From sequence record NC_133255.1: a stretch of DNA of 64,000 nucleotides; one strand, 5' to 3'. A program made the translations under genes and the position numbers. The notes beneath the pieces were generated by a model, which worked only from the letters and a program-made list of their open reading frames with translations, ran no database searches and was not told where the DNA came from. This document shows positions 2,160 through 60,051 of this stretch, piece after piece; position 1 is the first letter of the stretch; each line of letters begins with the position of its first letter. Source of the DNA: Escherichia phage vB_EcoS-26175I.

Positions 2160-3160
2160 GCGCGGCGGTAAACTTTCCCGCCGTGTAGTTCGTCATTGCC
2201 GCCCTACGTGATAAATAATAGGAGAATACCGAGAAGGGCGCAACCTTATTTTTGTAAAGAAACGTAAAGACAAACGCCACTGCACCACGTCCAGCGGCGC
2301 ACTAAATTTAATGAAACGGGCGCGCGAATAACACCAAAACAACCATTTTAGCAAGTAATTTTCTCATTTATATTTGCTTTGCCCTACTTGACAAAATCTA
2401 AAATCCTCGTGGTGAGGTTTTCTCGGTGTACCCCTTATGATTGCCTATCTTTTCCTTTGAGGCGCTTAGAATGCGTTACAGAGCGTTTTAGACCCTGTTA
2501 ATAACTTATACAAAAAGCAAAAATGAAATTTAATGAGTTATCCACTTGATTTTTCAAAAAAGTATTTTCTGCTATTATTTTTCATTGACAAATAAGTTTA
2601 GACGTGCATTGATTGGTTAGCAGACTAACAATCGCTAGGATGATAATCACGCTGGTGGATTGTAACAGCTGAAACAGTTAGCAGACTATTAATACTCTAG
2701 AAACCTGTTAGCCAACTAACTATTTCATATTATATAATATACATATAAATTAATAAGAAATAATAACTATAAGAAACTATCAGCTAAGTGAGAACCACTA
2801 TCATTTAGGTTATTCACAAAGTTATCCACAGCACAAAATAACTTGACGCAATAGGCGACGTTTTGGCGACTTATCCACAGACTTATATACAGGTTATCCT
2901 ACTGTATAAATATACAGGGTAAATAGGTAGCAGTAACAACCGCAATCAAATTTAAGCGGCCTAGAACGCATTCTAAGCGATTTTCTCACTGCTACCCTTA
3001 TTATAATAAAGCCTTGTGTACGCTTACAGAGAGCTAGAAATAGAAAACGCGCGGTTATCATAAAAACAGGCAGTAGGCAAGGAATAAAAAACCTTTTCTT
3101 TTTTCTTGCCCCTAGCGAACAATTATCTATATCATTCACTCACCGATTAACGAGGGAGAC
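2160..3160. repeat. non-coding module A: DnaA-box-like sites (TTATCCACA near 2822-2830 and 2871-2879, TTATCCACT near 2538-2546), palindrome CTGTATAAATATACAG near 2901-2917, repeated GTTAGCAGACTA motifs, and a ~27-bp element TTAGAATGCGTTACAGAGCGTTTTAGA (about 2466-2492) with an inverted partial copy near 2966-2980
   Basis: Motifs read directly from the sequence; the same elements recur at 5800-5975. Confidence 0.6.
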
Positions 3161-3166
3161 AAAGAA

Positions 3167-4168
3167 ATGTCTACTGTAAGAATTGCAGTACCAGCAAACG
3201 CCACTATTATTAAGGGTAGTTTGCGCAACCTGCTAGACGGATCAAGTCCAGCAAGCCTACAACATACGGCGGCAATGGTTGAAAAGATTCACGATGATAT
3301 TTTAGATAATAATGATACTCATTATTGTTTAAGTGATTTCACACAACTACTAGACCCTACCCGCGTTCTAGTGCTTTACAACCGTGACTATCACATCATG
3401 CGAAATCAGCGGGGAAGCGATATTGATTTTATCATTGTAGGTCACGACGAAAAAAGCTATATTGCCCGTGGTTACAATGTACAAGAAAAGGAAATGGTTT
3501 TCGCTACTCGCGTAAATGGTATTAATTCCAGCGATGTAGAAGATTTACTATCTAGTATTTGGGGCGAATTGACAAGCGCCATTAAACGTGCTGATAGTGA
3601 CGCAATCGAAACAACTGGCGTATTGTGTTTTGAACGCGCTAGCGGTAACATGTTGATCCCTAACGATTATTTAGAGTATGGGAATGAATCAAACGTTGCA
3701 AACGCTGGATTTACACTTTTACCGCTTGACAATGTAACAAAACAGGCTGTAAGATCTAACACTCAAACTTCAAGCGCAAATGCGCAAACTACTGAAAATA
3801 AAGGAAATATTATGTCTAAAGTATCTTCTATCGTTGCTGCTAACAAATCTGCTGTTGTAAACGCTGCTAAACTGGAAGCGGGTAAAATTGCACTGACTCA
3901 AATCACAAAAGTAGCGGCGAAAAAAGCACCGTTTATGATTAAAGGGTATATTGATACGCCGATTGGTCGTGTAGTGATCGCTAACCTGCTGAGTGTAGCG
4001 GTTGACCAGTACGCCCCGACTAATGCGAAAGCGAAAGCGGTAGCAGGCGCGGCAATGGAAGCAGCAATGCTGGAAATGGTGCAGAGTTTCAATATTGCTG
4101 AAATGATCGATGAAATGGTAAAAGGCATTGACATTTCTACTTTTACCACTAACACCGAAAGCGAGTAA
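3167..4168 (+). CDS. hypothetical protein with Ala-rich C-terminal half
   Basis: 333-aa ORF with GAGGGAG RBS; followed by a hairpin plus T-run. Confidence 0.6.
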   Translation: MSTVRIAVPANATIIKGSLRNLLDGSSPASLQHTAAMVEKIHDDILDNNDTHYCLSDFTQLLDPTRVLVLYNRDYHIMRNQRGSDIDFIIVGHDEKSYIARGYNVQEKEMVFATRVNGINSSDVEDLLSSIWGELTSAIKRADSDAIETTGVLCFERASGNMLIPNDYLEYGNESNVANAGFTLLPLDNVTKQAVRSNTQTSSANAQTTENKGNIMSKVSSIVAANKSAVVNAAKLEAGKIALTQITKVAAKKAPFMIKGYIDTPIGRVVIANLLSVAVDQYAPTNAKAKAVAGAAMEAAMLEMVQSFNIAEMIDEMVKGIDISTFTTNTESE

Positions 4169-4758: not shown

Positions 4759-5103
4759 ATGGTAATTTATGAGGGCAATCGTTTTGTTACTAATTGCCGT
4801 CCGGCATTATTAGCAAACTATTTAAATCAGCTTTCACCAGTTTATAAAGGCGTAGTTAATATCTATGAGGGCAAAGCACATTATAAGATTAATGCCATTG
4901 TTGCCCGTGAACTAGCGTTTCAATTTTTAACTTTCGGGTCTTGTGACGTTCAGGTTATGGGGGAAGCGTTAATAGCAGAAAATGAAAATGAATTTATCGA
5001 CATTTTCCGCAAAGTATATACAGAGCGCCTGATTATGAAAGGCGCGTATATTCAATCAACCGCTGAAAGTATCGAAACAGCGTTTCGAAAGGTGGCGCAA
5101 TGA
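4759..5103 (+). CDS. hypothetical protein
   Basis: 114-aa ORF with GAGG RBS. Confidence 0.55.
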   Translation: MVIYEGNRFVTNCRPALLANYLNQLSPVYKGVVNIYEGKAHYKINAIVARELAFQFLTFGSCDVQVMGEALIAENENEFIDIFRKVYTERLIMKGAYIQSTAESIETAFRKVAQ

Positions 5104-5285
5104 CTAGAAATGAAGCTGTTAAAGCTATGTTAGAAGGTAAAAAAGTAACTCATCGTTATTTTTCCATGCATGAATATTTATTCATGAAATATGAAGTGAT
5201 CACCACGGAGGATGGTTATAAATTTAATCATGAATTTTATAGCCGTGAAATGTTTAATGATGGCTGGCAGCTTTATTATGAATAG
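5100..5285 (+). CDS. hypothetical protein
   Basis: 61-aa ORF with ATGA start/stop overlap to the upstream gene. Confidence 0.45.
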   Translation: MTRNEAVKAMLEGKKVTHRYFSMHEYLFMKYEVITTEDGYKFNHEFYSREMFNDGWQLYYE

Positions 5286-5522
5286 CTGGTGGCGTAAAAC
5301 GCAAAGTCACAAATCTAATAATACCGCTGGGAATGTTTCCCAGCGTTTACGATTTGGTAATGGCTTTACAATGATATTGATAATCATTCTCATTCTAGGA
5401 GCGATGGCGTTATGAGACTATATATTTTCGTGGGTAATATTAAGCCTGCTAATGATCCCAACGGTGGCGACAATATCCGCCGCTATTTTCAACAATACAT
5501 CTATTAATAACGGGGCGTTACT

Positions 5523-5717
5523 ATGAGTGATAAAATTGTTATTCGTAAAACTAGTGTTACCGTGGATACATTCTATGTAGAAGATACAAAAGAAAACCGC
5601 GCAATTTGTGAGAATCAAGAGTATGACAAACTTATATATGATGAGTATGGTTACTACACTAATCTAGTAGATTCCTACGGTGAAAGCGTAGAGTTCTCCC
5701 ATCAAATACCGGACTAA
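5523..5717 (+). CDS. hypothetical protein
   Basis: 64-aa ORF followed by a terminator hairpin. Confidence 0.45.
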   Translation: MSDKIVIRKTSVTVDTFYVEDTKENRAICENQEYDKLIYDEYGYYTNLVDSYGESVEFSHQIPD

Positions 5718-5723
5718 TAATAA

Positions 5724-5756
5724 CGGGGCGCAACTATCGGCCCCGCCTTTTCTGGC
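5724..5756 (+). terminator. rho-independent terminator
   Basis: CGGGG...CCCCG stem followed by CCTTTTCT. Confidence 0.5.
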
Positions 5757-5799
5757 CTTCCTCAAATTTTCCCTTATTAAAATACCCCCTCCAAAAATA

Positions 5800-5975
5800 A
5801 ACGCGTTAGAATGCGTTACAGAGCGTTTTAGAGCTATATTAGAGTTATTCACCACGCAGGAATACTGTATAAATATACAGTAGAATAACCTGTTGATAAG
5901 TCTGTTGATAACGCCTCAAAATCGCTAGGATTTTGTCAAGTCAAATCGTGCTGTTAATAAACCTGTGGATAACTT
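5800..5975. repeat. non-coding module B: second copy of the 27-bp element (about 5806-5832), palindrome TACTGTATAAATATACAGTA (about 5863-5882), tandem TGTTGATAA DnaA-box-like sites (about 5891-5910) and a reverse DnaA box TGTGGATAA (about 5965-5973)
   Basis: Direct comparison with 2160-3160. Confidence 0.6.
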
Positions 5976-5999
5976 AAATAACAGTGTTTCTCACTTCCC

Positions 6000-6900: not shown

Positions 6901-7323
6901 CTAGAATGCGTGAGTTTTCCTAGAAACTTAGGAGTCTACTAGAAAGTGTTGTGCCATCCTAGCAGATGAGCGGCAACCGGTGTATCATCTTGAACGTTAA
7001 TTTATCTATTCAACAGTATTAGTTTTTATATAAGTATAAGATCCCCCAGGGTTCTCATATAGAGCTTTGCCCCCCGTCAGAAGGTCTCGTGATGTTTCTA
7101 GTAATCTTTACTAAATTACCTGTTGACTTGTCCTGTCGCTCCGTAACCTACGCTACAAGTCAGTAATTTAAGATTCCTGAACCACCACACCTTCTGTGTG
7201 GCAACTCTAAATGGTTAATTTTATTAACTCATAGAGTTATGATAACATACATTTAGTTATCTGTCAACGAGAGTTTGTATTTGAGTCTCGGTACAGGTAT
7301 TGTGCACCGAGACATGCAGGATC

Positions 7324-8211
7324 TTACAGTAACTCTTGGTATGCTTTTTGATACGCCTCAGTGTTAGTAGGTGTATCTTTTGCAATAGCTATTAATTCAT
7401 CTGTGATCTGAATATTTGTATTATAACGTGTGTGGAACTCGTCAGGAATTTCTAAATATCTATTGATGAATGCTGCAGCAAGCGGTGAAGCTATACCCAT
7501 TTCTAGAACCCATCCAACTTGTTTCTCAAACTTCAGATAAGGAGATTCTGTTTGAGTAGTAGAAGTTTTGGTTTCCTTGACTTCTTTAGTTGGTAGAATT
7601 GGATTTTCATAACGTGCTTCTTCTGGAATAGCAGATCTACGTTCTTTATAAATATAAGTTTCTAGATCCGATGCTTTAGACCCTGAGTACACTGCAAAGA
7701 CACTTGCTTTACCTTGTGATGCTCTAATTGGAAGATAACAATTTGGATAGCTTCTTAAGGCATCATGGAACGGGCTTCCAGAATATTGATAACGATCTCC
7801 ATATAAATCATCAATATTCATTCGTTCATCTTCAAAGATGTGGAATGCACTAAATGAAGGTAGCGTAAAATATTCTGTCTCTAGCGCACGAATTAAGAAA
7901 CGATGTGCATATGCACTAATCTTAATAACTGTGTAAGGTTTTTCTCCTTCTTTAAGAGCGTTACCCTTAGATGTAACTTGATAACGTTTCCCAAAGAACT
8001 CTACTAAACGTTTCTCATTTAACGAGAGCGTAGAGTATAAACGTCCATTCAGTCCTAGCAAAGTATCAAACATAAATGCTAGCTTATCTTTTTCTTCTTG
8101 GGTTAGTTCAGGGAACGGTAGGATCTTAGCATTTGGAATATTATTTGTTTCCTTAGCTTTTCCTTTGCCAGCATTTTGTCTCAGTTTGTCTTTAAAATTA
8201 TATGTACTCAT
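7324..8211 (-). CDS. hypothetical early protein
   Basis: 295-aa ORF. Confidence 0.6.
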   Translation of the reverse strand: MSTYNFKDKLRQNAGKGKAKETNNIPNAKILPFPELTQEEKDKLAFMFDTLLGLNGRLYSTLSLNEKRLVEFFGKRYQVTSKGNALKEGEKPYTVIKISAYAHRFLIRALETEYFTLPSFSAFHIFEDERMNIDDLYGDRYQYSGSPFHDALRSYPNCYLPIRASQGKASVFAVYSGSKASDLETYIYKERRSAIPEEARYENPILPTKEVKETKTSTTQTESPYLKFEKQVGWVLEMGIASPLAAAFINRYLEIPDEFHTRYNTNIQITDELIAIAKDTPTNTEAYQKAYQELL

Positions 8212-34844: not shown

Positions 34845-35354
34845 TTAATTATTTCGGGCATATTCCCCATGAAGTTTCTCTCTCAGTTGAATTAGAGCTT
34901 CATTTGCTGCTTCAGGAGTACTGTGCAGCCCTGCGGAGTATGACTTACCTTTAAACATTATTCTATCCTGCCACTGACCAGATGCTTTGTGGTAGGATAC
35001 TCCCTTAAATCCGCTAGTATTCCTAGAAGATTTACTAGCATTATGAGTATTAGTGGTACTATCCGCTGCTCTTAAATTTAAAGGATGTATGTTTAACTTA
35101 TTGCAGTCTTTATGATCAATCATTTCCGGCCTATACCCATAATATAGTATAAATACTATGATATGAGCTAAGTAATCTTGGTGATCAACGTTAACTCTGA
35201 TATACCCAGAGCTTTTGTGCAAAGATCCCGCAGGTTTATTGGCAAACTTAGTATTAAATATCTTCTCCTCTCTGGAGTTTCCGGAGAGCGGATTCCACAC
35301 CAGTACACCATCTTCTAAACGGAATCTATAAAGTATAGACTCATAGTCTAGCAT
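34845..35354 (-). CDS. HNH-AP2 homing endonuclease
   Basis: HNH core IDHKDCNKLNIHPLNLR plus AP2-type DNA-binding segment GVSYHKASGQWQ; 169 aa. Confidence 0.7.
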   Translation of the reverse strand: MLDYESILYRFRLEDGVLVWNPLSGNSREEKIFNTKFANKPAGSLHKSSGYIRVNVDHQDYLAHIIVFILYYGYRPEMIDHKDCNKLNIHPLNLRAADSTTNTHNASKSSRNTSGFKGVSYHKASGQWQDRIMFKGKSYSAGLHSTPEAANEALIQLREKLHGEYARNN

Positions 35355-35827: not shown

Positions 35828-36520
35828 TTATTTGTTAACGCGTACAAAGTATCCTTTATAGGCTCCCATAATAGAGTTACCTAAGAATACTAGCCACATT
35901 GCTAGGATTGCATAAGATGCACCTGTAGATTGAGTAGTTACAAGCCAAATGTACACAGTACCAATGTTAATAGCAATCCAGATCAGCCACTGCTCGGCAT
36001 ACTGCTTAACCATAAGCCACATAGCGATCACACTACCTACCGCAGTAAATGCATCCAACATTGGGAATGGATCAGCCGTAGTAGCTAAGAAACTACCATA
36101 CCCTAACGTGGCTACTGCTAGAATCCCTAGAGTCAGCAGAGCTTGGACTTTAGTCAGAATCTTAGTTGGAACATCTGGCAGATTACTTGGCTTATTTTTA
36201 TGCCATAAGTACATTCCATAAAACTGCATAGGAACGTAGTATAGCAGGTTTAGTGCAGCGTTACCATAAAGATCTGCGTTTAAAGCTGTAATACCATAGG
36301 TAAGAACACCAACTAAGCCCCAAATATAGTTAGAAACACGTCCTTTAGCAACCAAAATAACACAAACTACGTTGGTTATCGCAGTAGCCCAATCTAGAGC
36401 TGTACCATTATAGTTTGCTAAACTAATAAAGGCGACTGCCATAAACAGCCACAGATATTCCAAAGGTTTCCAGTTTTTAAAGTCATTTACAAGATAGTTA
36501 GTCATATTAAAACTCTCCAA
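35828..36520 (-). CDS. pnuC: nicotinamide riboside transporter PnuC
   Basis: 230-aa polytopic membrane protein with PnuC-like Trp/Gly-rich helices; overlaps nadR. Confidence 0.7.
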   Translation of the reverse strand: MESFNMTNYLVNDFKNWKPLEYLWLFMAVAFISLANYNGTALDWATAITNVVCVILVAKGRVSNYIWGLVGVLTYGITALNADLYGNAALNLLYYVPMQFYGMYLWHKNKPSNLPDVPTKILTKVQALLTLGILAVATLGYGSFLATTADPFPMLDAFTAVGSVIAMWLMVKQYAEQWLIWIAINIGTVYIWLVTTQSTGASYAILAMWLVFLGNSIMGAYKGYFVRVNK

Positions 36521-37613
36521 CGTTAAAGTGATGAATCAGCCAGTCTACTGCGTTTACTGCTTCGTCCATACGAACTTTGTAGTCCGGGGAGTCGATGTAA
36601 ACAGTACGTCCTTCAGGGAACTGATTTGGAAATTCTTTCTTCATCTGCTCGAACAGTTCAGAAGTAATTGAACGATCGGAGTTAATACGTAAACCATCAT
36701 CTACCCACTTGACAGTAGGCGCTAGAACAATTACTAAATCGTAATGTTCTTCTTTTGCAATTGCTGTAACCACAGGATTCTTACGATGTTCATAAAGTCT
36801 GTGGTAGAACTCAGTAATAAAAGCATTTGTATCCACAAACATGATCTTATTTGCAGTACGTTCTGCTTCAAACTCTAGCTCTTTGTGTCTGAACGCAATT
36901 TTACTATAATCTTCGCTGGTAAGCAGATTTTCGTTACCAACTAGATCAACTTCACAATACGTTCGACCATATTCTTCTACCCACGAAGTGTTGTATAGCT
37001 TCGCAAGGTATTTTGTTAAAGTAGTCTTTCCCGAGCTTTCAGTCCCAATGAGTACAACCTTACGCACGTAATCTTTACGAACTACGCTAGGAAGAAACTC
37101 CCAATACTTCATAAGATCATTACGAATCATTGTAGCTGAGATTGGAACACGAGTCCGATCAGAATCTACAATATAATGACCAAACTTCGGCAGATATTTC
37201 TTATATTCTGCATCATAGTCTAGTTCGCTAGAGAAAATGGTGATCTCAGGCAAATGTCCATAATTTTCATTAAGGATTCTAGCATATTCCGGCCAACCAT
37301 TCGGATATTCAGGAATATCATCTTCAATAATGTACTCTACCGAAACGTGCTCAATATCCGCGTAAGTTTGTTCTAACCAACGAAGACGATTCTTTAACTG
37401 TAATACTTCCTGATCACGTGTGTTCTGCTTATCCAGCCAACGATTATCATGACTAACTACAATAATAACTCGTTCACACATAGTTGCTGCTGTGTTTATT
37501 AGGTTAATATGACCACGCGTTAATGGTGCGAACTTACCAATTACTAGACCAGTCTTAATCATGTTTGATTCCTCTCTCAAATTTATAAATATATTATACA
37601 GAGAATTTAGCAT
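36507..37613 (-). CDS. nadR: bifunctional NadR-like NMN adenylyltransferase / ribosylnicotinamide kinase (no HTH domain)
   Basis: N-terminal GKFAPLTRGH nucleotidyltransferase motif and C-terminal Walker A GTESSGKTT; 368 aa. Confidence 0.8.
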   Translation of the reverse strand: MLNSLYNIFINLREESNMIKTGLVIGKFAPLTRGHINLINTAATMCERVIIVVSHDNRWLDKQNTRDQEVLQLKNRLRWLEQTYADIEHVSVEYIIEDDIPEYPNGWPEYARILNENYGHLPEITIFSSELDYDAEYKKYLPKFGHYIVDSDRTRVPISATMIRNDLMKYWEFLPSVVRKDYVRKVVLIGTESSGKTTLTKYLAKLYNTSWVEEYGRTYCEVDLVGNENLLTSEDYSKIAFRHKELEFEAERTANKIMFVDTNAFITEFYHRLYEHRKNPVVTAIAKEEHYDLVIVLAPTVKWVDDGLRINSDRSITSELFEQMKKEFPNQFPEGRTVYIDSPDYKVRMDEAVNAVDWLIHHFNVGEF

Positions 37614-37825: not shown

Positions 37826-38770
37826 TTACTTATTACGCATATCCATAATCATTTGACCATCGTAGCCAGTACCGACAACAGTCTGCGGTACACCACCTTG
37901 GTATTTTTCAGCACGAAGCATTTCAACTTCCAGCTGCTTCCAACGAATCATTTCAGGAGTAATGGTACGTTGCAGAGCGGCGTTAGCTTCAGCTTCTTTC
38001 TTAGCTGCGTACAGTTTAGCATCTGCGTCACGTTCGTTAGCTACTGCCATGTTTTCACGAGCGGAACGATCTGCCTCAGCTTGCTTAACTTTCTGCTGTG
38101 CTTCTTGTTCAACACGAGCCAGTTCAGCTTTTGCAGCGTTAACTTGTTCTTCACGAACTTTAGTGTTCTGTACCTGTTCCATGATTACCGGTGGCAGAGT
38201 AATATCCTGAAGGAATACTTGCTTAACCGTGTAACCATAAGGACGCGCGTACTCTTCTACCTCTTGCTGAATAGCAGTTTGCAGTTGAGCCTGAATCTTA
38301 GCGTCGAACAGATCTTGTGCTTTTGGTACGGACTTACCAAACTCACGAATCGTAGACAGCATCTTCTCTTCAACGTATTTGTTCAGAGCCTGATCCTGAG
38401 TACCTGCGTTAACACGGTTCATAGGAGCTTTAGCACCATCAAACTGCAACATAACGGTAATGTCAACAGTAGACTTAAACTTATCCTGGCTAGGAACCTG
38501 AAGTTTATCCAGTTTCATGGAAATATCTTTCGTACTAAAAGTATCAAAAGAAGCAAATGGGTTAACAATATGGAAGCCTGGCAATACAGGATTAGGGCTA
38601 ACTTTACCCAGGAAGGTTTGAGTCTTAACAGTACCATCCTGAACAACTGTATAGGAATTGAGAGCCAGAATAAGAGCACCAAGACCAACAGCAGCACCAA
38701 CACCCCAACGTTTAATAGTACGAATTACTTTTTGCTCAGAAGTCAGTTCTTTAGTGTTTTTAGTAAACAT
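37826..38770 (-). CDS. SPFH / band-7 (prohibitin / HflC-like) membrane protein
   Basis: N-terminal transmembrane segment, SPFH-like core, Ala/Glu-rich coiled coil; 314 aa. Confidence 0.6.
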   Translation of the reverse strand: MFTKNTKELTSEQKVIRTIKRWGVGAAVGLGALILALNSYTVVQDGTVKTQTFLGKVSPNPVLPGFHIVNPFASFDTFSTKDISMKLDKLQVPSQDKFKSTVDITVMLQFDGAKAPMNRVNAGTQDQALNKYVEEKMLSTIREFGKSVPKAQDLFDAKIQAQLQTAIQQEVEEYARPYGYTVKQVFLQDITLPPVIMEQVQNTKVREEQVNAAKAELARVEQEAQQKVKQAEADRSARENMAVANERDADAKLYAAKKEAEANAALQRTITPEMIRWKQLEVEMLRAEKYQGGVPQTVVGTGYDGQMIMDMRNK

Positions 38771-54402: not shown

Positions 54403-54594
54403 CTACAATTTTAAATAAGCCTATGATATTGCATTTAAATAAAAAATTTGCTTGCTTTTATTGGGAAATGTATGGTACTAGATAATCATTTTATATCGCG
54501 TACACGGGTGCGTGATTATACTATTTTTAGTAGAGGTTGGCAAATAAAATTTTTTGACTCAGATCAATTTACAGAATGTTATAGTAAAATATTG

Positions 54595-54623
54595 TTGACA
54601 TCCGCCTTCGAATGAGTTATAAT
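54595..54623 (+). promoter_or_regulatory. sigma70 promoter for nrdD (TTGACA, 17-bp spacer, TATAAT)
   Basis: Consensus hexamers read from sequence; RBS GAAGGAGAG follows. Confidence 0.65.
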
Positions 54624-54652: not shown

Positions 54653-56527
54653 ATGAATCGCAATGAAGAACTAAAGTATAAAGGAATGCAGTCCTTGATT
54701 CGAAACTGCAAAGAAATTATCGAAGGTTCAGCAGATGAAGAGCTGCTGTTTAATAATGCCAATAAGCCCTCAGAACGTTTCCCTACACAAAGGGATATGC
54801 TTGCAGGGGAATTGAGTAAATATCTGATTCTGGAAGAAATGCCAATCCAGATTCGAAATGCTCACATGATTGGTGATATTCACTTCCATGATGCTGATTA
54901 CGCTGCGTTAGGTATGACTAACTGTTGCCTGGTTGCTTTGGAAGATATGTTGAAGAATGGTATGAAGGTTGGTAATGCTGAAATCAGTACACCAAACTCT
55001 ATTACTACTGCGGCTGCTATCACAGCTCAGATTATCACTCAGGTTAGTTCACATCAATATGGTGGTACTTCTGTAGACCGATTAGATGAAGTACTGGCTC
55101 CTTATGTTCGTAAGTCTTATGATAAGAATCATGCGTTTGCAAAACGTTGGACTAAGGATGAAGCCAAAGCATCTGTAATGGCTACGGAAATGACTGAGAA
55201 AGAAGTTTACGATGCCTGTCAGGGCCTGGAGTATGAAATCAATACGATGTTCAACTCTAATGGTCAGAGTCCATTTATTACCTTTGGTTTTGGTCTAGGA
55301 ACTTCCTGGGAAGCACGTCTTGTACAGAAAGCAATCTTAGAAGTGCGTATGGATGGTTTGGGTATCAATAAACGTACAGCTATCTTCCCTAAACTGGTAT
55401 TTGTTTTGCGTGATGGCGTAAACATGAAACCTGGTGATGTTAACTATGATATCAAGAAGTTAGCTATGAAATGTACTGCCGAACGTATGTACCCCGACTA
55501 TATCAGTTATGATAAGGTTGTAGAAGTTACTGGTGACTATAAAGTCTCTATGGGTTGTCGTTCATTCCTGGCTGCTGCGGAAGATGGTGAAACTTCTGGT
55601 CGTAACAACTTAGGCGTTGTTTCCGTAAACCTTCCTCGAATCGCTATCGAAGCAGAAGGAAATATTGATCTATTCTTCGATCTGCTTGAGCTGCGTGTGG
55701 ATACCGCGTTAAAAGCATTGGAGTGGAGGGTTGATCGCTTAAAATACATTCAAGCTAAAGCTGCGCCCATCCTCTATATGTCAGGAGCCTTTGGATTACG
55801 TCTGGGACCCGATGAATATGTATTTGATCATTTCTACAAGCGTGCTTCTGTATCTCTAGGATATATTGGTTGCCACGAAATGTTGCAGCTCATGTTTGGT
55901 AAAGATGTAGATACAATGTCTGAGTCTTGTATCAAGTTCGTTCAACGTGTGCTACAATATATGCGTGATCGTGCTGATCAGAAGAAGGAAGAGACTCAGT
56001 TAGGTTATAGTCTGTATGCTACACCATCTGAATCTCTGTGTGATCGCTTCTGTCGTCTAGACCGTGAGTACTTCCCAGAGCATGAGGATATTCTGGCTAA
56101 AGGATACTACACTAACTCCCATCACCTTGATGTAGAACGTAAGGTTGCTCCAAATGTGAAATTTGATTATGAGTCTAACTTTACTCCTATTGCTTCTGGT
56201 GGGTGCATTTCCTACGTGGAATTACCTGACATGAAGAAATTCCCAGATGCCCTAGAATGGGTAATTAACTATGCTGCAAGTAAAGTTCACTACTTTGGTA
56301 TTAATACTCCAGTTGATTCTTGTGGTGAGTGTGGATTCTTAGGCGAAACAATTGCTTCTGAAGATGGATTTAAATGCCCAATTTGTGGCAACCATGATCC
56401 TGAGACTCTTGAGGTAACACGTCGTGTTTGTGGGTACCTTGGTAATCCAGGTGCACGCCCATTTAACCCAGGTAAACAGCATGAGGTTATGGGACGAATC
56501 AAGCATGCAGATGTAAGAGCTAAATAA
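54653..56527 (+). CDS. nrdD: anaerobic ribonucleoside-triphosphate reductase
   Basis: 624 aa; C-terminal Zn ribbon CPICGNHD and glycyl-radical motif RRVCGYLG. Confidence 0.85.
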   Translation: MNRNEELKYKGMQSLIRNCKEIIEGSADEELLFNNANKPSERFPTQRDMLAGELSKYLILEEMPIQIRNAHMIGDIHFHDADYAALGMTNCCLVALEDMLKNGMKVGNAEISTPNSITTAAAITAQIITQVSSHQYGGTSVDRLDEVLAPYVRKSYDKNHAFAKRWTKDEAKASVMATEMTEKEVYDACQGLEYEINTMFNSNGQSPFITFGFGLGTSWEARLVQKAILEVRMDGLGINKRTAIFPKLVFVLRDGVNMKPGDVNYDIKKLAMKCTAERMYPDYISYDKVVEVTGDYKVSMGCRSFLAAAEDGETSGRNNLGVVSVNLPRIAIEAEGNIDLFFDLLELRVDTALKALEWRVDRLKYIQAKAAPILYMSGAFGLRLGPDEYVFDHFYKRASVSLGYIGCHEMLQLMFGKDVDTMSESCIKFVQRVLQYMRDRADQKKEETQLGYSLYATPSESLCDRFCRLDREYFPEHEDILAKGYYTNSHHLDVERKVAPNVKFDYESNFTPIASGGCISYVELPDMKKFPDALEWVINYAASKVHYFGINTPVDSCGECGFLGETIASEDGFKCPICGNHDPETLEVTRRVCGYLGNPGARPFNPGKQHEVMGRIKHADVRAK

Positions 56528-56568
56528 TGAATCAGCCAGGTCGCTAGTCGATCTGGCTTTTATTTTAC

Positions 56569-56597
56569 TTGCTTTCTAGCTAAAACTTATGTATAAT
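56569..56597 (+). promoter_or_regulatory. sigma70 promoter (TTGCTT / TATAAT)
   Basis: Same module in plus orientation. Confidence 0.55.
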
Positions 56598-56626
56598 TGA
56601 TTTATAAATTTGAGAGGAGAAAACGA

Positions 56627-56845
56627 ATGGCAAAAGTACCACAAGAATTTACGGATGGAATTAAGGCAGATCTAGATGTAATGCTAATGGCCCAATGGGA
56701 GTCTGGCTTCCGAGATGGAATTGATTGTTGTGTGGCCGTGCTCGATACTATTAGTTGGCAGCTTATTCAATCTGGAAATGATGCAGAAGGCAACCTTCTA
56801 GCTAACCTTTCTAAACAAATTAGGGAAATGAAATGCGCAGATTAA
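56627..56845 (+). CDS. hypothetical protein (MAKVPQEF...)
   Basis: Start moved to the ATG with GAGAGGAG RBS; the ORF-track start at 56597 is TTG inside the -10. Confidence 0.5.
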   Translation: MAKVPQEFTDGIKADLDVMLMAQWESGFRDGIDCCVAVLDTISWQLIQSGNDAEGNLLANLSKQIREMKCAD

Positions 56846-57684
56846 TTATTGTTAGTGGTGCAGGTTTGAGTGTAGACAGTGGTGTTCGTGCTTTCCGTAC
56901 TGATACTTCTAGTGGAAAATCTTTGTGGGATGAGTACGATCTAGAGGAAGTATGTAGCTTGCCTAACTTTGAAGCTGGCTTCCGTCGCTTCTGTGGTGAA
57001 GATGATCCTAACTACTTCAGTGCTCGTTTCCCTGGCATTGATGAAGATGGTAACGATCTGTATCTCAAGACTCATGAGTTCTACAACATGCGTCGTCAGG
57101 AATTACAGACTGTTGAGCCTAACATTGCCCATCTGCGAATTGCAGAATGGTTCCAGCGTTATGGTGCGGATAGCGTGAAGAACTTCACTACTAACGTTGA
57201 TGACCTTCTGGAACGTGCTGGTATCCCTCGTGATGAAATCATCCATGCTCACGGATACTTGAAAGAGGTGATCTATCGTCGGGGTCGCAATCAAATCATC
57301 GAAGATGTTGGATACACTGCAATTGTTCCTGAAGATTACGAATGGGTAAAACCAAACGTGGTGTTCTTTGGTGAGACAGCTCCGTGGTACATGGGTCAAA
57401 TCAACCTGTTTGATACTCTTACTAGCAATGACATGGTTATTGTGGTGGGTTGTAGTAACCAAGTTATCAACTTCAACTGGGAATTATTTCCTGCTGTATG
57501 TCGTGGAACTAAGATGATGGTTGTTAACCCACAAGTTCGTTATGACGAGCAGCTTGAGTATGAGAAACGTGGTGTTACTGTATGGCGTGCTGGAGCTGCC
57601 GAAGTTTTTGGTAACAAGCATTTCATTGATCAAGTTGAAGCCTTTATGGAAGGAACTATTTATGCACCAGAAAAACATAGGTGA
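56833..57684 (+). CDS. Sir2-like NAD-dependent deacylase / ADP-ribosyltransferase
   Basis: N-terminal GAGLSVDSGVRAFR sirtuin NAD-binding motif; 283 aa. Confidence 0.65.
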   Translation: MRRLIIVSGAGLSVDSGVRAFRTDTSSGKSLWDEYDLEEVCSLPNFEAGFRRFCGEDDPNYFSARFPGIDEDGNDLYLKTHEFYNMRRQELQTVEPNIAHLRIAEWFQRYGADSVKNFTTNVDDLLERAGIPRDEIIHAHGYLKEVIYRRGRNQIIEDVGYTAIVPEDYEWVKPNVVFFGETAPWYMGQINLFDTLTSNDMVIVVGCSNQVINFNWELFPAVCRGTKMMVVNPQVRYDEQLEYEKRGVTVWRAGAAEVFGNKHFIDQVEAFMEGTIYAPEKHR

Positions 57685-57844
57685 TCTTTTAGTATGGCCG
57701 GATGGTAGTTGGTGCTACCGTTTCGAATTTGCTACCGATGACTTCTCATGGAAGAGTGATGATTTCTGCGTTATCTACGAAGATACAGCGGAATGGAAAG
57801 AATTCCTGATTAAGGAGGGAGAATATGGTGAAGAAGATTTTTAA
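57662..57844 (+). CDS. small hypothetical protein
   Basis: Internal ATG with GGAAGGA RBS; the longer ORF-track form overlaps Sir2. Confidence 0.35.
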   Translation: MHQKNIGDLLVWPDGSWCYRFEFATDDFSWKSDDFCVIYEDTAEWKEFLIKEGEYGEEDF

Positions 57845-58010
57845 GGGTATCTGGAAAGGTCTAGTATGGTTTGTCAACCTAATTGGTATGATTACCATTT
57901 ATTCTCTGTTCCTATCTGTTATGTGGGGTAAAGGTGAACTGAAGGTTCCGGTTCCTTTTACTAATGAAGTTAAAGTCTGGACGTGGGATGCTACTGGTGG
58001 AAATAAGTAA
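57825..58010 (+). CDS. small membrane protein
   Basis: 61-aa ORF with AGGAGGGAG RBS and one transmembrane segment. Confidence 0.5.
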   Translation: MVKKIFKGIWKGLVWFVNLIGMITIYSLFLSVMWGKGELKVPVPFTNEVKVWTWDATGGNK

Positions 58011-58503
58011 TACTCCTGTGATTTTCCTGGATATTGATGGGGTGCTCAATTCGAGCATCTCTCACCATCATGCTCCAGATAATGAAAAGCTGTTCTTTGG
58101 CAGTGATTGGGTTTATAAACCGTTACTCCAGGCTTTTCAGAACTTCCTTAAACCTTCTCCAATAATGATTGTTGGGGTATCTTCATGGTTTTCTGTACGA
58201 AACGAGATGGAGAACGTTCAGATTATGACCGGGCTCGGTTTGATCGATCGTTTTCTTGGTACAACAGATTTTACTGGTGGCGGTTTATCTCGTGGTAATT
58301 CTGTCTTACGTTTCGTAGAAAAACATAAGCTCAAGCATTGGTGCGTCCTAGATGATGCTGGTGCTATGATGTATCAATTTCCTACTGTTATTGTAAATGG
58401 CAGGACTGGAATAAACTTTCAAGATTTAAATGCTATCAGCTATACGCTGGAATTTAGTCCAGATCTTGAAATGTGTAAGGCTCTTCAGAAACTCAAGGTG
58501 TAG
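57988..58503 (+). CDS. HAD-superfamily phosphatase-like protein (start uncertain)
   Basis: VIFLDIDGVLN motif near the N-terminus. Confidence 0.4.
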   Translation: MLLVEISNTPVIFLDIDGVLNSSISHHHAPDNEKLFFGSDWVYKPLLQAFQNFLKPSPIMIVGVSSWFSVRNEMENVQIMTGLGLIDRFLGTTDFTGGGLSRGNSVLRFVEKHKLKHWCVLDDAGAMMYQFPTVIVNGRTGINFQDLNAISYTLEFSPDLEMCKALQKLKV

Positions 58504-58505
58504 AT

Positions 58506-58934
58506 ATGTTCGATAATCTTTTCATGAAAGAGGTAAACCCTATGCTTCTCAACTTCTGGCGTTCTCTCCCTAATGGTATGTACAATGAAACCATCAATCT
58601 GCTTAAGATTTGGTGTGAGAATAACGATATCTTCTTATCCTTTAAAGGCCCACTAGAGGAAGCTCCGTGTATTGGAGTTAGTGTGGATTTAGGGGAGGGA
58701 GTAGAAGAAATTGTGGACTGGAAAGAACTCGATGAAATGGGTCTGGTTTTTGCCTTGAACCATAAGCTGTTTATGCCTGCAAATCACCGTCTTATTGTAA
58801 ATTATCGCACTGGTGAAGCTCCTGCTTTCCAGGTAAATGAACGTGAGGGCTGGTCATATTCGCCCGAGGAAGTAAATGAGGGGATTCAGAAACTTCGTCG
58901 TTTCGGGTATATGATCCCAGGTTTAACTGCTTAA
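58506..58934 (+). CDS. hypothetical protein, paralog 1
   Basis: 142 aa; shares W.EL..MGL..ALN...F.P......R..TGE.P...QV...W.Y...PGL with the next gene. Confidence 0.6.
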   Translation: MFDNLFMKEVNPMLLNFWRSLPNGMYNETINLLKIWCENNDIFLSFKGPLEEAPCIGVSVDLGEGVEEIVDWKELDEMGLVFALNHKLFMPANHRLIVNYRTGEAPAFQVNEREGWSYSPEEVNEGIQKLRRFGYMIPGLTA

Positions 58935-58943
58935 GGAGGCAGA

Positions 58944-59339
58944 ATGGAACAAGTATTTTGGCGTCAGATAGATCCTAGTTTGGTAGAGCGTGCTGAAGGG
59001 CTCCTTGCACGTTGGTTGGGGGTTGACAAGGTTAGTGTAACATTTCCGTTTACTTCTGTAACAGACCCTAGTGTAGGTGTCTTTGTGGACGAAGATGAAG
59101 ATGATGGTTGGGAAGCTGACTGGAATGAATTGTCCAGCATGGGCTTGATTGTTGCCCTCAACTTCTCTATATTCCATCCACGTGGCTTAGCCATTACACG
59201 TGACCCCGAGACTGGTGAATCCCCTTATCTTTTGCAAGTAGAAGATGATATTTGGGAGTACACCGAAGATATTCTCGAAGAAGCTAAAGGTCAATTAAAT
59301 CTCATTGGAATCTATGTCCCAGGCCTAAATGTTGATTGA
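58944..59339 (+). CDS. hypothetical protein, paralog 2
   Basis: 131 aa; tandem divergent duplicate of the previous gene. Confidence 0.6.
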   Translation: MEQVFWRQIDPSLVERAEGLLARWLGVDKVSVTFPFTSVTDPSVGVFVDEDEDDGWEADWNELSSMGLIVALNFSIFHPRGLAITRDPETGESPYLLQVEDDIWEYTEDILEEAKGQLNLIGIYVPGLNVD

Positions 59340-59430
59340 TTTTCATTAGTTCAATCCTGATTACCGAGTCATTTTGGCTCGGTTTTCTCCGTGCTCAAAG
59401 ACACTGATAGCACCTTCGGAAAAATTTTAC

Positions 59431-59459
59431 TTGCAGGATGCTCAAAATCTTGGTATAAT
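59431..59459 (+). promoter_or_regulatory. sigma70 promoter (TTGCAG, 17-bp spacer, TGGTATAAT)
   Basis: Hexamers read from sequence; followed by a long leader of about 590 nt. Confidence 0.5.
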
Positions 59460-60051
59460 ATTTATATTGAATTGAGAGACATTAGTAAAAATTGATTTTG
59501 CTAATTTTTCTTAATGAAGCTGACAATGGATTTACGGCGAGAGCGATCGATGACCCGTAAATAGCTGCATAAGGTACGTTGCTAGAGCTTTATGAAAAAG
59601 TTTTTCTTGTTTACAATCCGCAATACGGAACAGTTAGGCTGCCCCATTAAAGGTTGTTTTAACTATTACTAGTGTTTATACTGCATTAGTTAATTATCAA
59701 TTAAGTGATCTGCGTACCCTGAATTCGGAAAGGTAAATCCAAACCGTGCATATTTAGCTCGTTATATAGGCAGAGCTTTATATGGGGGTGCGAACGAAAA
59801 GAGCAGCGAATGGTGACACGTCCAGTAGCCACCTACCAATAGGATAGTGAGGGCAATCAGAATCGGCTTAGCGGCCAATGACCTAGGTTCTGATCTGGAT
59901 AAGAGTTAAGAGAGCGCAGCACTGAGGTATGATAACTTATTCATACTGCTTGATGATGATTAATGTTTGTGTAAATGGTAGTAATAGTTGTTCTATTCTT
60001 TTGAATAGTCCTAAAGAAAGATATCCGAATAACCAACATAGGAGTATTGTT

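Follow-up and report, generated by a model that had tools for sequence, protein, structure and literature searches.

The stretch analysed here, 64,000 nucleotides of Escherichia phage vB_EcoS-26175I (NC_133255.1; the window), comes from an Epseptimavirus (Demerecviridae, T5-like phage) and carries a block of seven plus-strand genes at 56627-59339 whose enzymatic core is a sirtuin (Sir2) and a small HAD_SAK_2 phosphatase. The block is a real feature: a dispensable accessory operon of a T5-like phage, and a module of these phages that is already annotated and discussed. Its most likely function, which we propose tentatively, is to clean up RNA ends that have been damaged, such as those of tRNAs cut by host anticodon nucleases, in an NAD+-dependent reaction. 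The gene neighbourhoods point to such RNA-end processing, with CobB-like deacylation as the rival. The idea of RNA repair is already published as a prediction, and novelty would lie in its demonstration.

The sirtuin and its phosphatase partner

The sirtuin gene (56833-57684, plus strand) encodes 283 amino acids, of which residues 9-22 form the motif GAGLSVDSGVRAFR, and the protein matches Pfam SIR2 (E=7.9e-22; 78.5 bits, cut-off 24) and phrog_2162 (E=6e-108). A sirtuin fold had been suggested by an earlier sequence-only reading of this DNA, and both remote homology and structure prediction agree with it: the closest sequence in the PDB is E. coli CobB (1s5p, E=2e-16), followed by an archaeal Sir2 and SIRT5, and an AlphaFold2 (AF2) model (pLDDT 86.6, pTM 0.85) compared with the PDB by Foldseek matches CobB first (TM 0.84, target-normalised) and then Sir2Af1, SIRT5 and Sir2Tm, with a probability of 1.00 for CobB, Sir2Af and SIRT5. 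The best 50 Foldseek matches are all protein deacylases (CobB, Sir2Af, Sir2Tm, SIRT5, Hst2), and no defence Sir2 of the ThsA, DSR or Sir2-HerA type is among these 50.

The sequence-only reading had allowed for a Sir2 devoid of its catalytic residues; in an alignment of 31 phage Sir2 homologues, all catalytic and NAD+-binding residues are conserved. Invariant are the NAD+ loop residues G9, A10, G11, S13, F21 and R22, the stretch T119-T120-N121-V122-D123, the catalytic H140-G141, F179 and E181 of the FGE motif, S208 and N232, and also the anion pocket Y84/R87 (Y-x-x-R) that is characteristic of class III sirtuins: FYNMRR of the phage protein aligns with FYNARR of CobB. The fold, the GAGxS and (T)xNxD motifs and the catalytic His-Gly place the protein within the Sir2 superfamily; of the class III features it has the Tyr-x-x-Arg pair and lacks the Cys4 zinc-binding small domain.

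The phage protein thus shares with E. coli CobB and human SIRT5 the Rossmann sirtuin fold (TM 0.84 to 1s5p), the GAGxS, FR, NxD, HG and FGE motifs and the Tyr-x-x-Arg pair that binds the succinyl carboxylate, but differs from both in several respects. The Cys4 zinc site is absent: residues ~141-172, which align with it, contain no cysteine, the 31 homologues conserve none at these positions, and the AF2 model has a β-hairpin where the zinc module would sit. TQNID is replaced by the invariant TTNVD, and a variable insertion of ~27 residues is found at residues 48-76. Lastly, the protein is phage-encoded, and its orthologues in sister phages lie amid RNA-end-processing genes. We take it for a class III sirtuin derived from CobB in which the Cys4 zinc site has been lost; judged from sequence and model, this divergent class III-like enzyme is probably active.

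The phosphatase gene at 57988-58503 (plus strand; an alternative ATG lies upstream at 57964) encodes a short protein of 171 amino acids that belongs to the HAD_SAK_2 family (Pfam PF18143, E=7e-19; 69 bits, cut-off 27.5) and contains the motif FLDIDGVLN, in line with the HAD-like phosphatase of the sequence-only reading. Motifs I (DxDxV), II (S/T), III (K/R) and IV (DD) are all present, and D15, D17, S65/S66, R102, D122 and D123 are invariant across six divergent homologues from T5-like, Erwinia, Aeromonas and Proteus phages. A sequence search of the PDB gave no meaningful match. The SAK group of HAD proteins is said to have been defined in the RNA-repair paper of Burroughs and Aravind from 2016.

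Public annotations of the two genes have become confused. The RefSeq label 'Sir2' on the HAD gene is a mislabel that goes back to the misnamed phrog_18062; in Salmonella phage S113 (RefSeq) and other records the HAD_SAK_2 gene is called 'Sir2 (NAD-dependent deacetylase)', and some genuine Sir2 homologues are listed as 'tail assembly protein'. From the T5 genome of 2005 onwards, the label given to close Sir2 homologues has reportedly been 'NAD-dependent deacetylase'.

Both genes are dispensable: the T5-like phage DT57C is viable although the same deletions have ruined the two of them. The annotated 'defective sir2' of DT57C is a chimeric open reading frame (ORF; 2968-3240 of its locus) in which Sir2 residues ~197-250 run into the final 41 residues of HAD: natural deletions have removed Sir2, the small genes and HAD together and left both downstream DUF7415 genes intact. 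Loss of Sir2 and HAD by one pair of deletions in a viable phage is what an accessory or counter-defence function would lead one to expect. DT57C is a natural deletion mutant that can be compared with its sibling DT571/2.

Gene neighbourhoods and the case for RNA-end repair

By tblastn, close homologues of the window Sir2 were found in 982 of 50,697 phage records, with identities of ~97% in Epseptimavirus, ~63% in Sugarlandvirus, ~60% in phAPEC8/Justusliebigvirus, ~52% in Tequintavirus, ~47% in rV5-like phages and 28-36% in KVP40-like and jumbo phages. The proteins of the block were compared with 73 loci, using tblastn and hidden Markov models. The order in T5-like phages is Sir2, a gene for a 60-amino acid protein, a (variable) membrane protein gene, HAD and two DUF7415 genes. 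The window Sir2 and HAD_SAK_2 genes are 304 nt apart on the same strand, and the two are neighbours in all examined Epseptimavirus and Tequintavirus loci with the exception of DT57C. Their linkage outlives rearrangement: in Erwinia phage KEY, where DUF7415 is absent, HAD comes first, then a gene for 118 amino acids and then Sir2, and a distant contig with a Sir2 of 38% identity has a HAD_SAK_2 gene 2.4 kb downstream of it in the same orientation.

In rV5-like and related myophages the Sir2 orthologues (46-56% identity) are part of same-strand clusters, which were found in several arrangements at 12 loci (11 from IMG/VR). The Pfam-confirmed members of these clusters are a calcineurin-like phosphoesterase, an Rnl1-type RNA ligase, a cREC cyclic-phosphate-processing domain and a P-loop kinase, followed by Sir2, which stands at the end and is the last gene of the same-strand run in most loci. 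This gene set consists of the enzymes of a pathway of the yeast Trl1+Tpt1 type, one in which a step that uses NAD+ is expected. It is because of this RNA-repair context of close orthologues and of the HAD_SAK_2 partner that we favour RNA ends as the target of the window block; the intact motifs of the HAD partner in T5-like phages, the persistence of the Sir2-HAD linkage and the invariance of the catalytic His, the NAD+ motifs and the Y-x-x-R pocket in the 31 homologues all support this.

Neighbourhoods of this kind, including the SP15 (T5-like) type, are described by Iyer, Burroughs, Anantharaman and Aravind (2022; Viruses 14:1977, PMC9503650), whose passages on sirtuins and RNA repair propose Tpt1/KptA-like removal of RNA 2'-phosphates for the phage sirtuin clade. 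Measured against these passages, their type 2 neighbourhood (rV5: RNA ligase, cREC, kinase, phosphoesterase) is independently reproduced here, and the window fits their SP15-type (type 3) neighbourhood, a sirtuin with an adjacent HAD_SAK-type phosphatase in a T5-like phage, without any essential difference. For the SP15 type, as for the window, the function given there is a computational prediction. SP15 also carries the same DUF7415 gene as the window; the same passages of PMC9503650 hold no mention of the DUF7415 pair, of the small acidic and membrane proteins, of the loss of the zinc cysteines or of the co-deletion in DT57C.

In place of an acyl-lysine, the window Sir2 would, as we infer, take an RNA 2'-phosphate as its substrate and so act as an analogue of Tpt1/KptA. 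A substrate oxygen would attack C1' of NAD+ with nicotinamide as the leaving group, the phosphate would be held by the invariant Tyr84/Arg87 anion pocket, and the adduct would be resolved by a His-activated 2'-OH, as in normal sirtuin chemistry. HAD would strip terminal phosphates from the RNA, or alternatively from an ADP-ribose phosphate by-product, and the NAD+ supply would be buffered by NARP3, a separate NAD+ salvage module of this phage (see below). The likeness to Tpt1/KptA would lie in the proposed chemistry (an RNA 2'-phosphate would be removed at the expense of NAD+, releasing nicotinamide) and is seen in the genomic company of the rV5-like orthologues, which consists of ligase, kinase and cyclic phosphodiesterase-like genes. 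It is an analogy and not family membership: Sir2 has a Rossmann fold, whereas Tpt1, with its catalytic tetrad Arg-His-Arg-Arg, has an ADP-ribosyltransferase-like fold, and searches of Pfam, NCBIfam, PDB sequences and folds gave no match of the window Sir2 to Tpt1/KptA. The mechanism of Tpt1 itself is established, and some Tpt1 enzymes remove terminal 2'- or 3'-phosphates in an NAD+-dependent manner (PMC6573784).

A more far-reaching version, which is also more doubtful, would make the phage Sir2 clade the first sirtuins that act on nucleic acids: an RNA 2'-phosphotransferase or terminal phosphomonoesterase convergent with Tpt1 that, together with HAD_SAK_2 and a host ligase, would reverse tRNA cleavage by anticodon nucleases, with NARP3 keeping up NAD+ and the DUF7415 pair as a nucleotide- or RNA-linked accessory or anti-defence protein of a new fold.

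Several observations weigh against RNA-end repair. To our knowledge, action on RNA has not been demonstrated for any sirtuin, and no experimental test of a phage Sir2 on RNA was found in the literature searched. The window Sir2 keeps the full set of deacylase hallmarks, including the FGE and V-N-P motifs of the acyl-lysine tunnel, and CobB and SIRT5 are its best matches. No homologue of Rnl, the kinase, cREC or the calcineurin-like enzyme is present in the 64-kb window, and ~110-kb T5-like records are absent among the sampled matches to Rnl1-type ligases across phages; with no sealing or kinase partners in T5-like phages, complete heal-and-seal repair would therefore need host enzymes. All cases of adjacent Sir2 and HAD genes (gap ≤1 kb) are from T5-like phages or their ~105-125-kb relatives, with one unclassified contig having HAD 2.4 kb downstream, and shared ancestry thus explains part of a linkage that is nearly confined to one phage family. 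Sugarlandvirus has Sir2 and the DUF7415 pair and no HAD. More distant Sir2 genes are found in other contexts: the order in a KVP40-like contig (6057-11758 of the locus) is NAMPT (a NARP2 component), Sir2, endoVII, nrdD and nrdG, and in a jumbo-phage contig (8001-9198 of the locus) Sir2 is followed by a nucleoside 2-deoxyribosyltransferase-like gene. HAD homologues of T4-like phages have no consistent RNA-repair context either.

The T4-like pairs of HAD and DUF7415 were considered as independent support for RNA repair and set aside, being suggestive in Aeromonas phage PX29 only. There, the gene order is td, HAD, two genes, rnlA and DUF7415: the single-domain DUF7415 protein (7296-7535 of its locus) is encoded directly 3' of RNA ligase A, with HAD_SAK_2 1.8 kb upstream of it. 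The HAD and DUF7415 contexts of RB43, Aeromonas phage 25 and Proteus PM2 are uninformative. In phAPEC8/Justusliebigvirus, the Sir2 orthologue is always preceded by two conserved proteins of about 203-219 and 163 amino acids without Pfam match (4793-5989 in one locus, 5225-5884 in three loci), and these could be alternative partners that replace HAD and DUF7415.

If removal of RNA 2'-phosphates is the true function, sirtuin chemistry would extend to nucleic acids, and phages would have a widespread counter to tRNA-cutting defences that is tied to the NAD+ arms race between host NADases and NARP1-3. If the enzyme is a plain deacylase, phages would reprogram host protein acylation. A working experimental system exists in the close relative Bas30, a phage of the BASEL collection.

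Deacylation, nucleotide metabolism and NAD+ consumption as alternatives

Nearly as likely as RNA-end repair is a plain CobB-like protein lysine deacylase (deacetylase, desuccinylase or lipoamidase) that, early during infection, would reset how host or phage proteins are acylated and whose neighbours would be unrelated early genes. E. coli CobB is the best match in sequence (E=2e-16), CobB, Sir2Af1 and SIRT5 are the best matches in fold, the only NCBIfam models that recognise the protein are of the CobB type, and the class III Tyr/Arg pair, the catalytic His and the FGE and VNP motifs are invariant. Deacylation is also the standard annotation: the Sir2 of T5 was already pointed out when the genome was sequenced, and the Vibrio phage homologues have been discussed as a CobB-like deacetylase (PMC5107563). 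In KVP40-like phages, Sir2 lies beside NAMPT, a classic pairing of a sirtuin with nicotinamide recycling. However, canonical sirtuins need the Cys4 zinc module for deacetylase activity, and it is this module that the phage protein has lost; in NCBIfam it falls far short of every CobB equivalog cut-off (74 against 320 bits for NF040867, 91 against 243 bits for NF001753), and E. coli already encodes CobB. Deacylation also leaves unexplained the operons of close orthologues with RNA ligase, cREC and kinase, which are repeated and tolerate rearrangement, and the link to HAD_SAK_2.

A role of the block in phage nucleotide metabolism is unlikely. In such a role, HAD would dephosphorylate nucleotides as a nucleotidase or phosphatase, enzymes of the nucleotide pool would have the DUF7415 proteins as regulators or adaptors, and Sir2 would control such enzymes, for example ribonucleotide reductases, by deacylation. 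The position fits: the block lies between nrdD and replication genes, with nrdA, nrdB, frd and td nearby, Sir2 is close to nrdD not only in T5-like but also in KVP40-like phages, and the HAD homologue of Aeromonas phage PX29 is encoded between td and nrdA.1. Position among early genes is nevertheless weak evidence in phages; HAD falls specifically into the RNA-repair-associated HAD_SAK_2 family, and DT57C, which has neither Sir2 nor HAD, has no obvious replication failure.

The DUF7415 proteins bear on this alternative too. The sequence-only reading had noticed two tandem, divergent paralogues, and both are indeed DUF7415 proteins: paralogue a (58506-58934, plus strand; 142 amino acids, pI 4.7; Pfam PF24187, E=9e-37; phrog_2502) and paralogue b (58944-59339, plus strand; 131 amino acids, pI 4.05; E=4e-28) score 125.5 and 98 bits with PF24187 (cut-off 27) and are 31% identical over the full length (mutual tblastn E=4e-16). 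An internal duplication was considered: Pfam matches two stretches in each protein, but an hhalign comparison of the N-terminal with the C-terminal half gives a probability of only 24%. For paralogue b, a confident α/β fold without solved relative is predicted. A profile search in 1.84 billion representative proteins found 219 relatives, most of them small and with a core of ~55 residues in common. Fusions, looked for among 44 of the longer matches, are with a MazG-like dATP/dGTP pyrophosphohydrolase (two proteins), DUF3850/ASCH (two) and thymidylate kinase (one): the first and the last of these speak for nucleotide metabolism, but the fusions are few and also include ASCH/DUF3850, a predicted RNA-binding domain. 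The two acidic proteins may be non-enzymatic accessory proteins with a role independent of Sir2 and HAD. In public records, DUF7415 proteins are found mislabelled as 'tail tube protein' or 'exonuclease'.

The sequence-only reading had connected Sir2 with NAD+ salvage genes. Such genes are present but not close by: a PnuC-like nicotinamide riboside (NR) transporter (35828-36520, minus strand; Pfam NMN_transporter, E=1e-42) and a NadR-like NMNAT/RNK protein without helix-turn-helix (36507-37613, minus strand; Pfam CTP_transf_like and AAA_28) are encoded 19 kb from the Sir2 block, on the opposite strand and outside the operon. By their families, their adjacency and their identity (98% to the PnuC-like Bas30_87 and 99% to the NadR-like Bas30_86) the two form a NARP3 system. 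In Escherichia phage TrudiRoth/Bas30, which has the same adjacency of the two genes and also carries the same Sir2 block, NARP3 has been shown to restore NAD+ that was depleted by Sir2-HerA (Sci Adv, August 2026, PMC13464706); in the passages of that paper that a term search retrieves, NARP3 is not linked to the phage's own Sir2. NARP3 is thus a distant locus on the other strand and has an explanation of its own, the countering of host NADases. The pair is flanked by a homing-endonuclease-like HNH/AP2 gene (34845-35354) and an SPFH/Band 7 gene (37826-38770).

As unlikely as a role in nucleotide metabolism is the idea, hinted at by the sequence-only reading, that Sir2 spends NAD+ in the service of host takeover or counter-defence. 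The protein would then hydrolyse NAD+ freely or transfer ADP-ribose to host proteins or immune signals, while NARP3 would offset the NAD+ spent. Release of nicotinamide from NAD+ is Sir2 chemistry, the phage carries NARP3, and the block is dispensable. Many defence Sir2 domains lack zinc-binding cysteines, as does the window protein, and T4 Alt and Mod ADP-ribosylate host proteins using NAD+. Modification of host proteins with ADP-ribose from NAD+ by other phages is also mentioned in the passages of PMC9503650 referred to above. Yet an unregulated NADase would oppose both NARP3, whose shown role is the restoration of NAD+ depleted by the host, and the phage's NAD+-dependent DNA ligase (seen in the close relative S113); no macrodomain or other partner for the reversal of ADP-ribosylation is encoded nearby, and the Y-x-x-R pocket and the acyl-lysine tunnel motifs favour a specific anionic substrate over water.

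With the defence Sir2 NADases (ThsA, DSR1/2, Sir2-HerA, SIR2-APAZ) the window protein has in common the Sir2 superfamily, NAD+ as substrate and the absence of zinc-binding cysteines, but it is phage-encoded and its structural neighbours are deacylases; none of the seven block proteins matches a PADLOC model at E≤0.01, and no sensor or partner module (SLOG, HerA, pAgo and others) was found in the block. A defence-type Sir2 NADase is rejected on the lack of PADLOC matches and on the fold neighbours, and the link to defence effectors that the sequence-only reading had implied is not supported; a counter-defence role by another route, such as RNA-end repair, is plausible.

Architecture of the block and adjoining features

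The ORFs described in the sequence-only reading are all present at the positions given there, and all seven proteins of the block match a PHROG family. The region 56500-59900 is 100% identical in Escherichia phages vB_EcoS-26175 II-V and 96-98% identical in many Salmonella and Escherichia Epseptimavirus genomes; altogether, 470 phage records match it at the DNA level. This recurrence, and junctions that overlap or leave at most 9 nt, show that the genes are real and not chance ORFs. Annotated relatives share the layout phoH (opposite strand), nrdD, small genes, Sir2, small genes, two hypothetical genes and the D1 origin-binding helicase, and the counterparts of the block genes in T5 are T5.101 to T5.107.

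Of the six junctions in the block, four are overlaps of 13-23 nt and two are gaps of 2 and 9 nt, which bears out the tight plus-strand linkage noticed earlier; most of the genes are preceded by a Shine-Dalgarno-like sequence (by eye). Terminator-like hairpins on the plus strand mark both boundaries. The upstream one (56534-56558), directly 3' of the nrdD stop codon, has a 10-bp stem followed by TTTTATTTT and folds with -15.6 kcal/mol (z=-4.7 against shuffled sequences); the downstream one follows the last gene (59363-59389 with its U-run, the hairpin itself being 59363-59383) and folds with -15.4 kcal/mol (z=-4.6). Between the upstream hairpin and the first gene lies what can be read as a promoter-like element, TTGCTT-17 nt-TATAAT (56569-56597, plus strand), followed by a ribosome-binding site; only three of six positions of its -35 hexamer match the consensus, and a consensus scan does not list it. 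From the tight junctions, the two bracketing hairpins and the promoter-like element we take the block to be one operon, located within the early region for nucleotide metabolism and replication and presumably expressed early.

The sequence-only reading had Sir2 follow nrdD directly, but the hairpin, the promoter-like -10 element and a gene for 72 amino acids intervene. This first gene of the block (56627-56845, plus strand; phrog_5827, E=1e-27) encodes an acidic protein, is a CDS in annotated relatives and overlaps the Sir2 start by 13 nt with its 3' end; its slot differs among T5-like phages. The genes named in the sequence-only reading are all present, with one left out: 57662-57844 (plus strand) encodes a conserved, very acidic protein of 60 amino acids (pI 4.05; phrog_5116, E=1e-27), which according to the co-occurrence table is kept beside Sir2 in T5-like phages and Sugarlandvirus. 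The small membrane protein is confirmed at 57825-58010 (plus strand; phrog_11166, E=3e-43): it is basic (61 amino acids, pI 9.9) and has a single predicted transmembrane helix at about residues 14-36 (Kyte-Doolittle maximum 1.93 at residues 14-32). Its gene is variable among T5-like phages and missing in most of the Tequintavirus loci compared.

Downstream of the terminator hairpin, ~540 nt without ORF (59390-59928) precede the D1/origin-binding helicase gene, and a comparable ORF-free gap is present in T5 and S113. The stretch contains a near-consensus promoter (TTGCAG-17-TATAAT) at about 59432-59460; a 14-nt inverted repeat is found at 59480-59516, and a 21-nt inverted repeat pair spans 59661-59989. 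Rfam and tRNA scans of the block and of this ORF-free region gave no matches; the region could be a long leader, a small RNA or origin-related. The gene for 80 amino acids after phoH is mislabelled as 'tail length tape measure protein' in public records. The 340-nt divergent intergenic region has, at 54515-54623, back-to-back promoters close to the sigma-70 consensus, with 12 of 12 matches on the plus strand (nrdD) and 11 of 12 on the minus strand (phoH).

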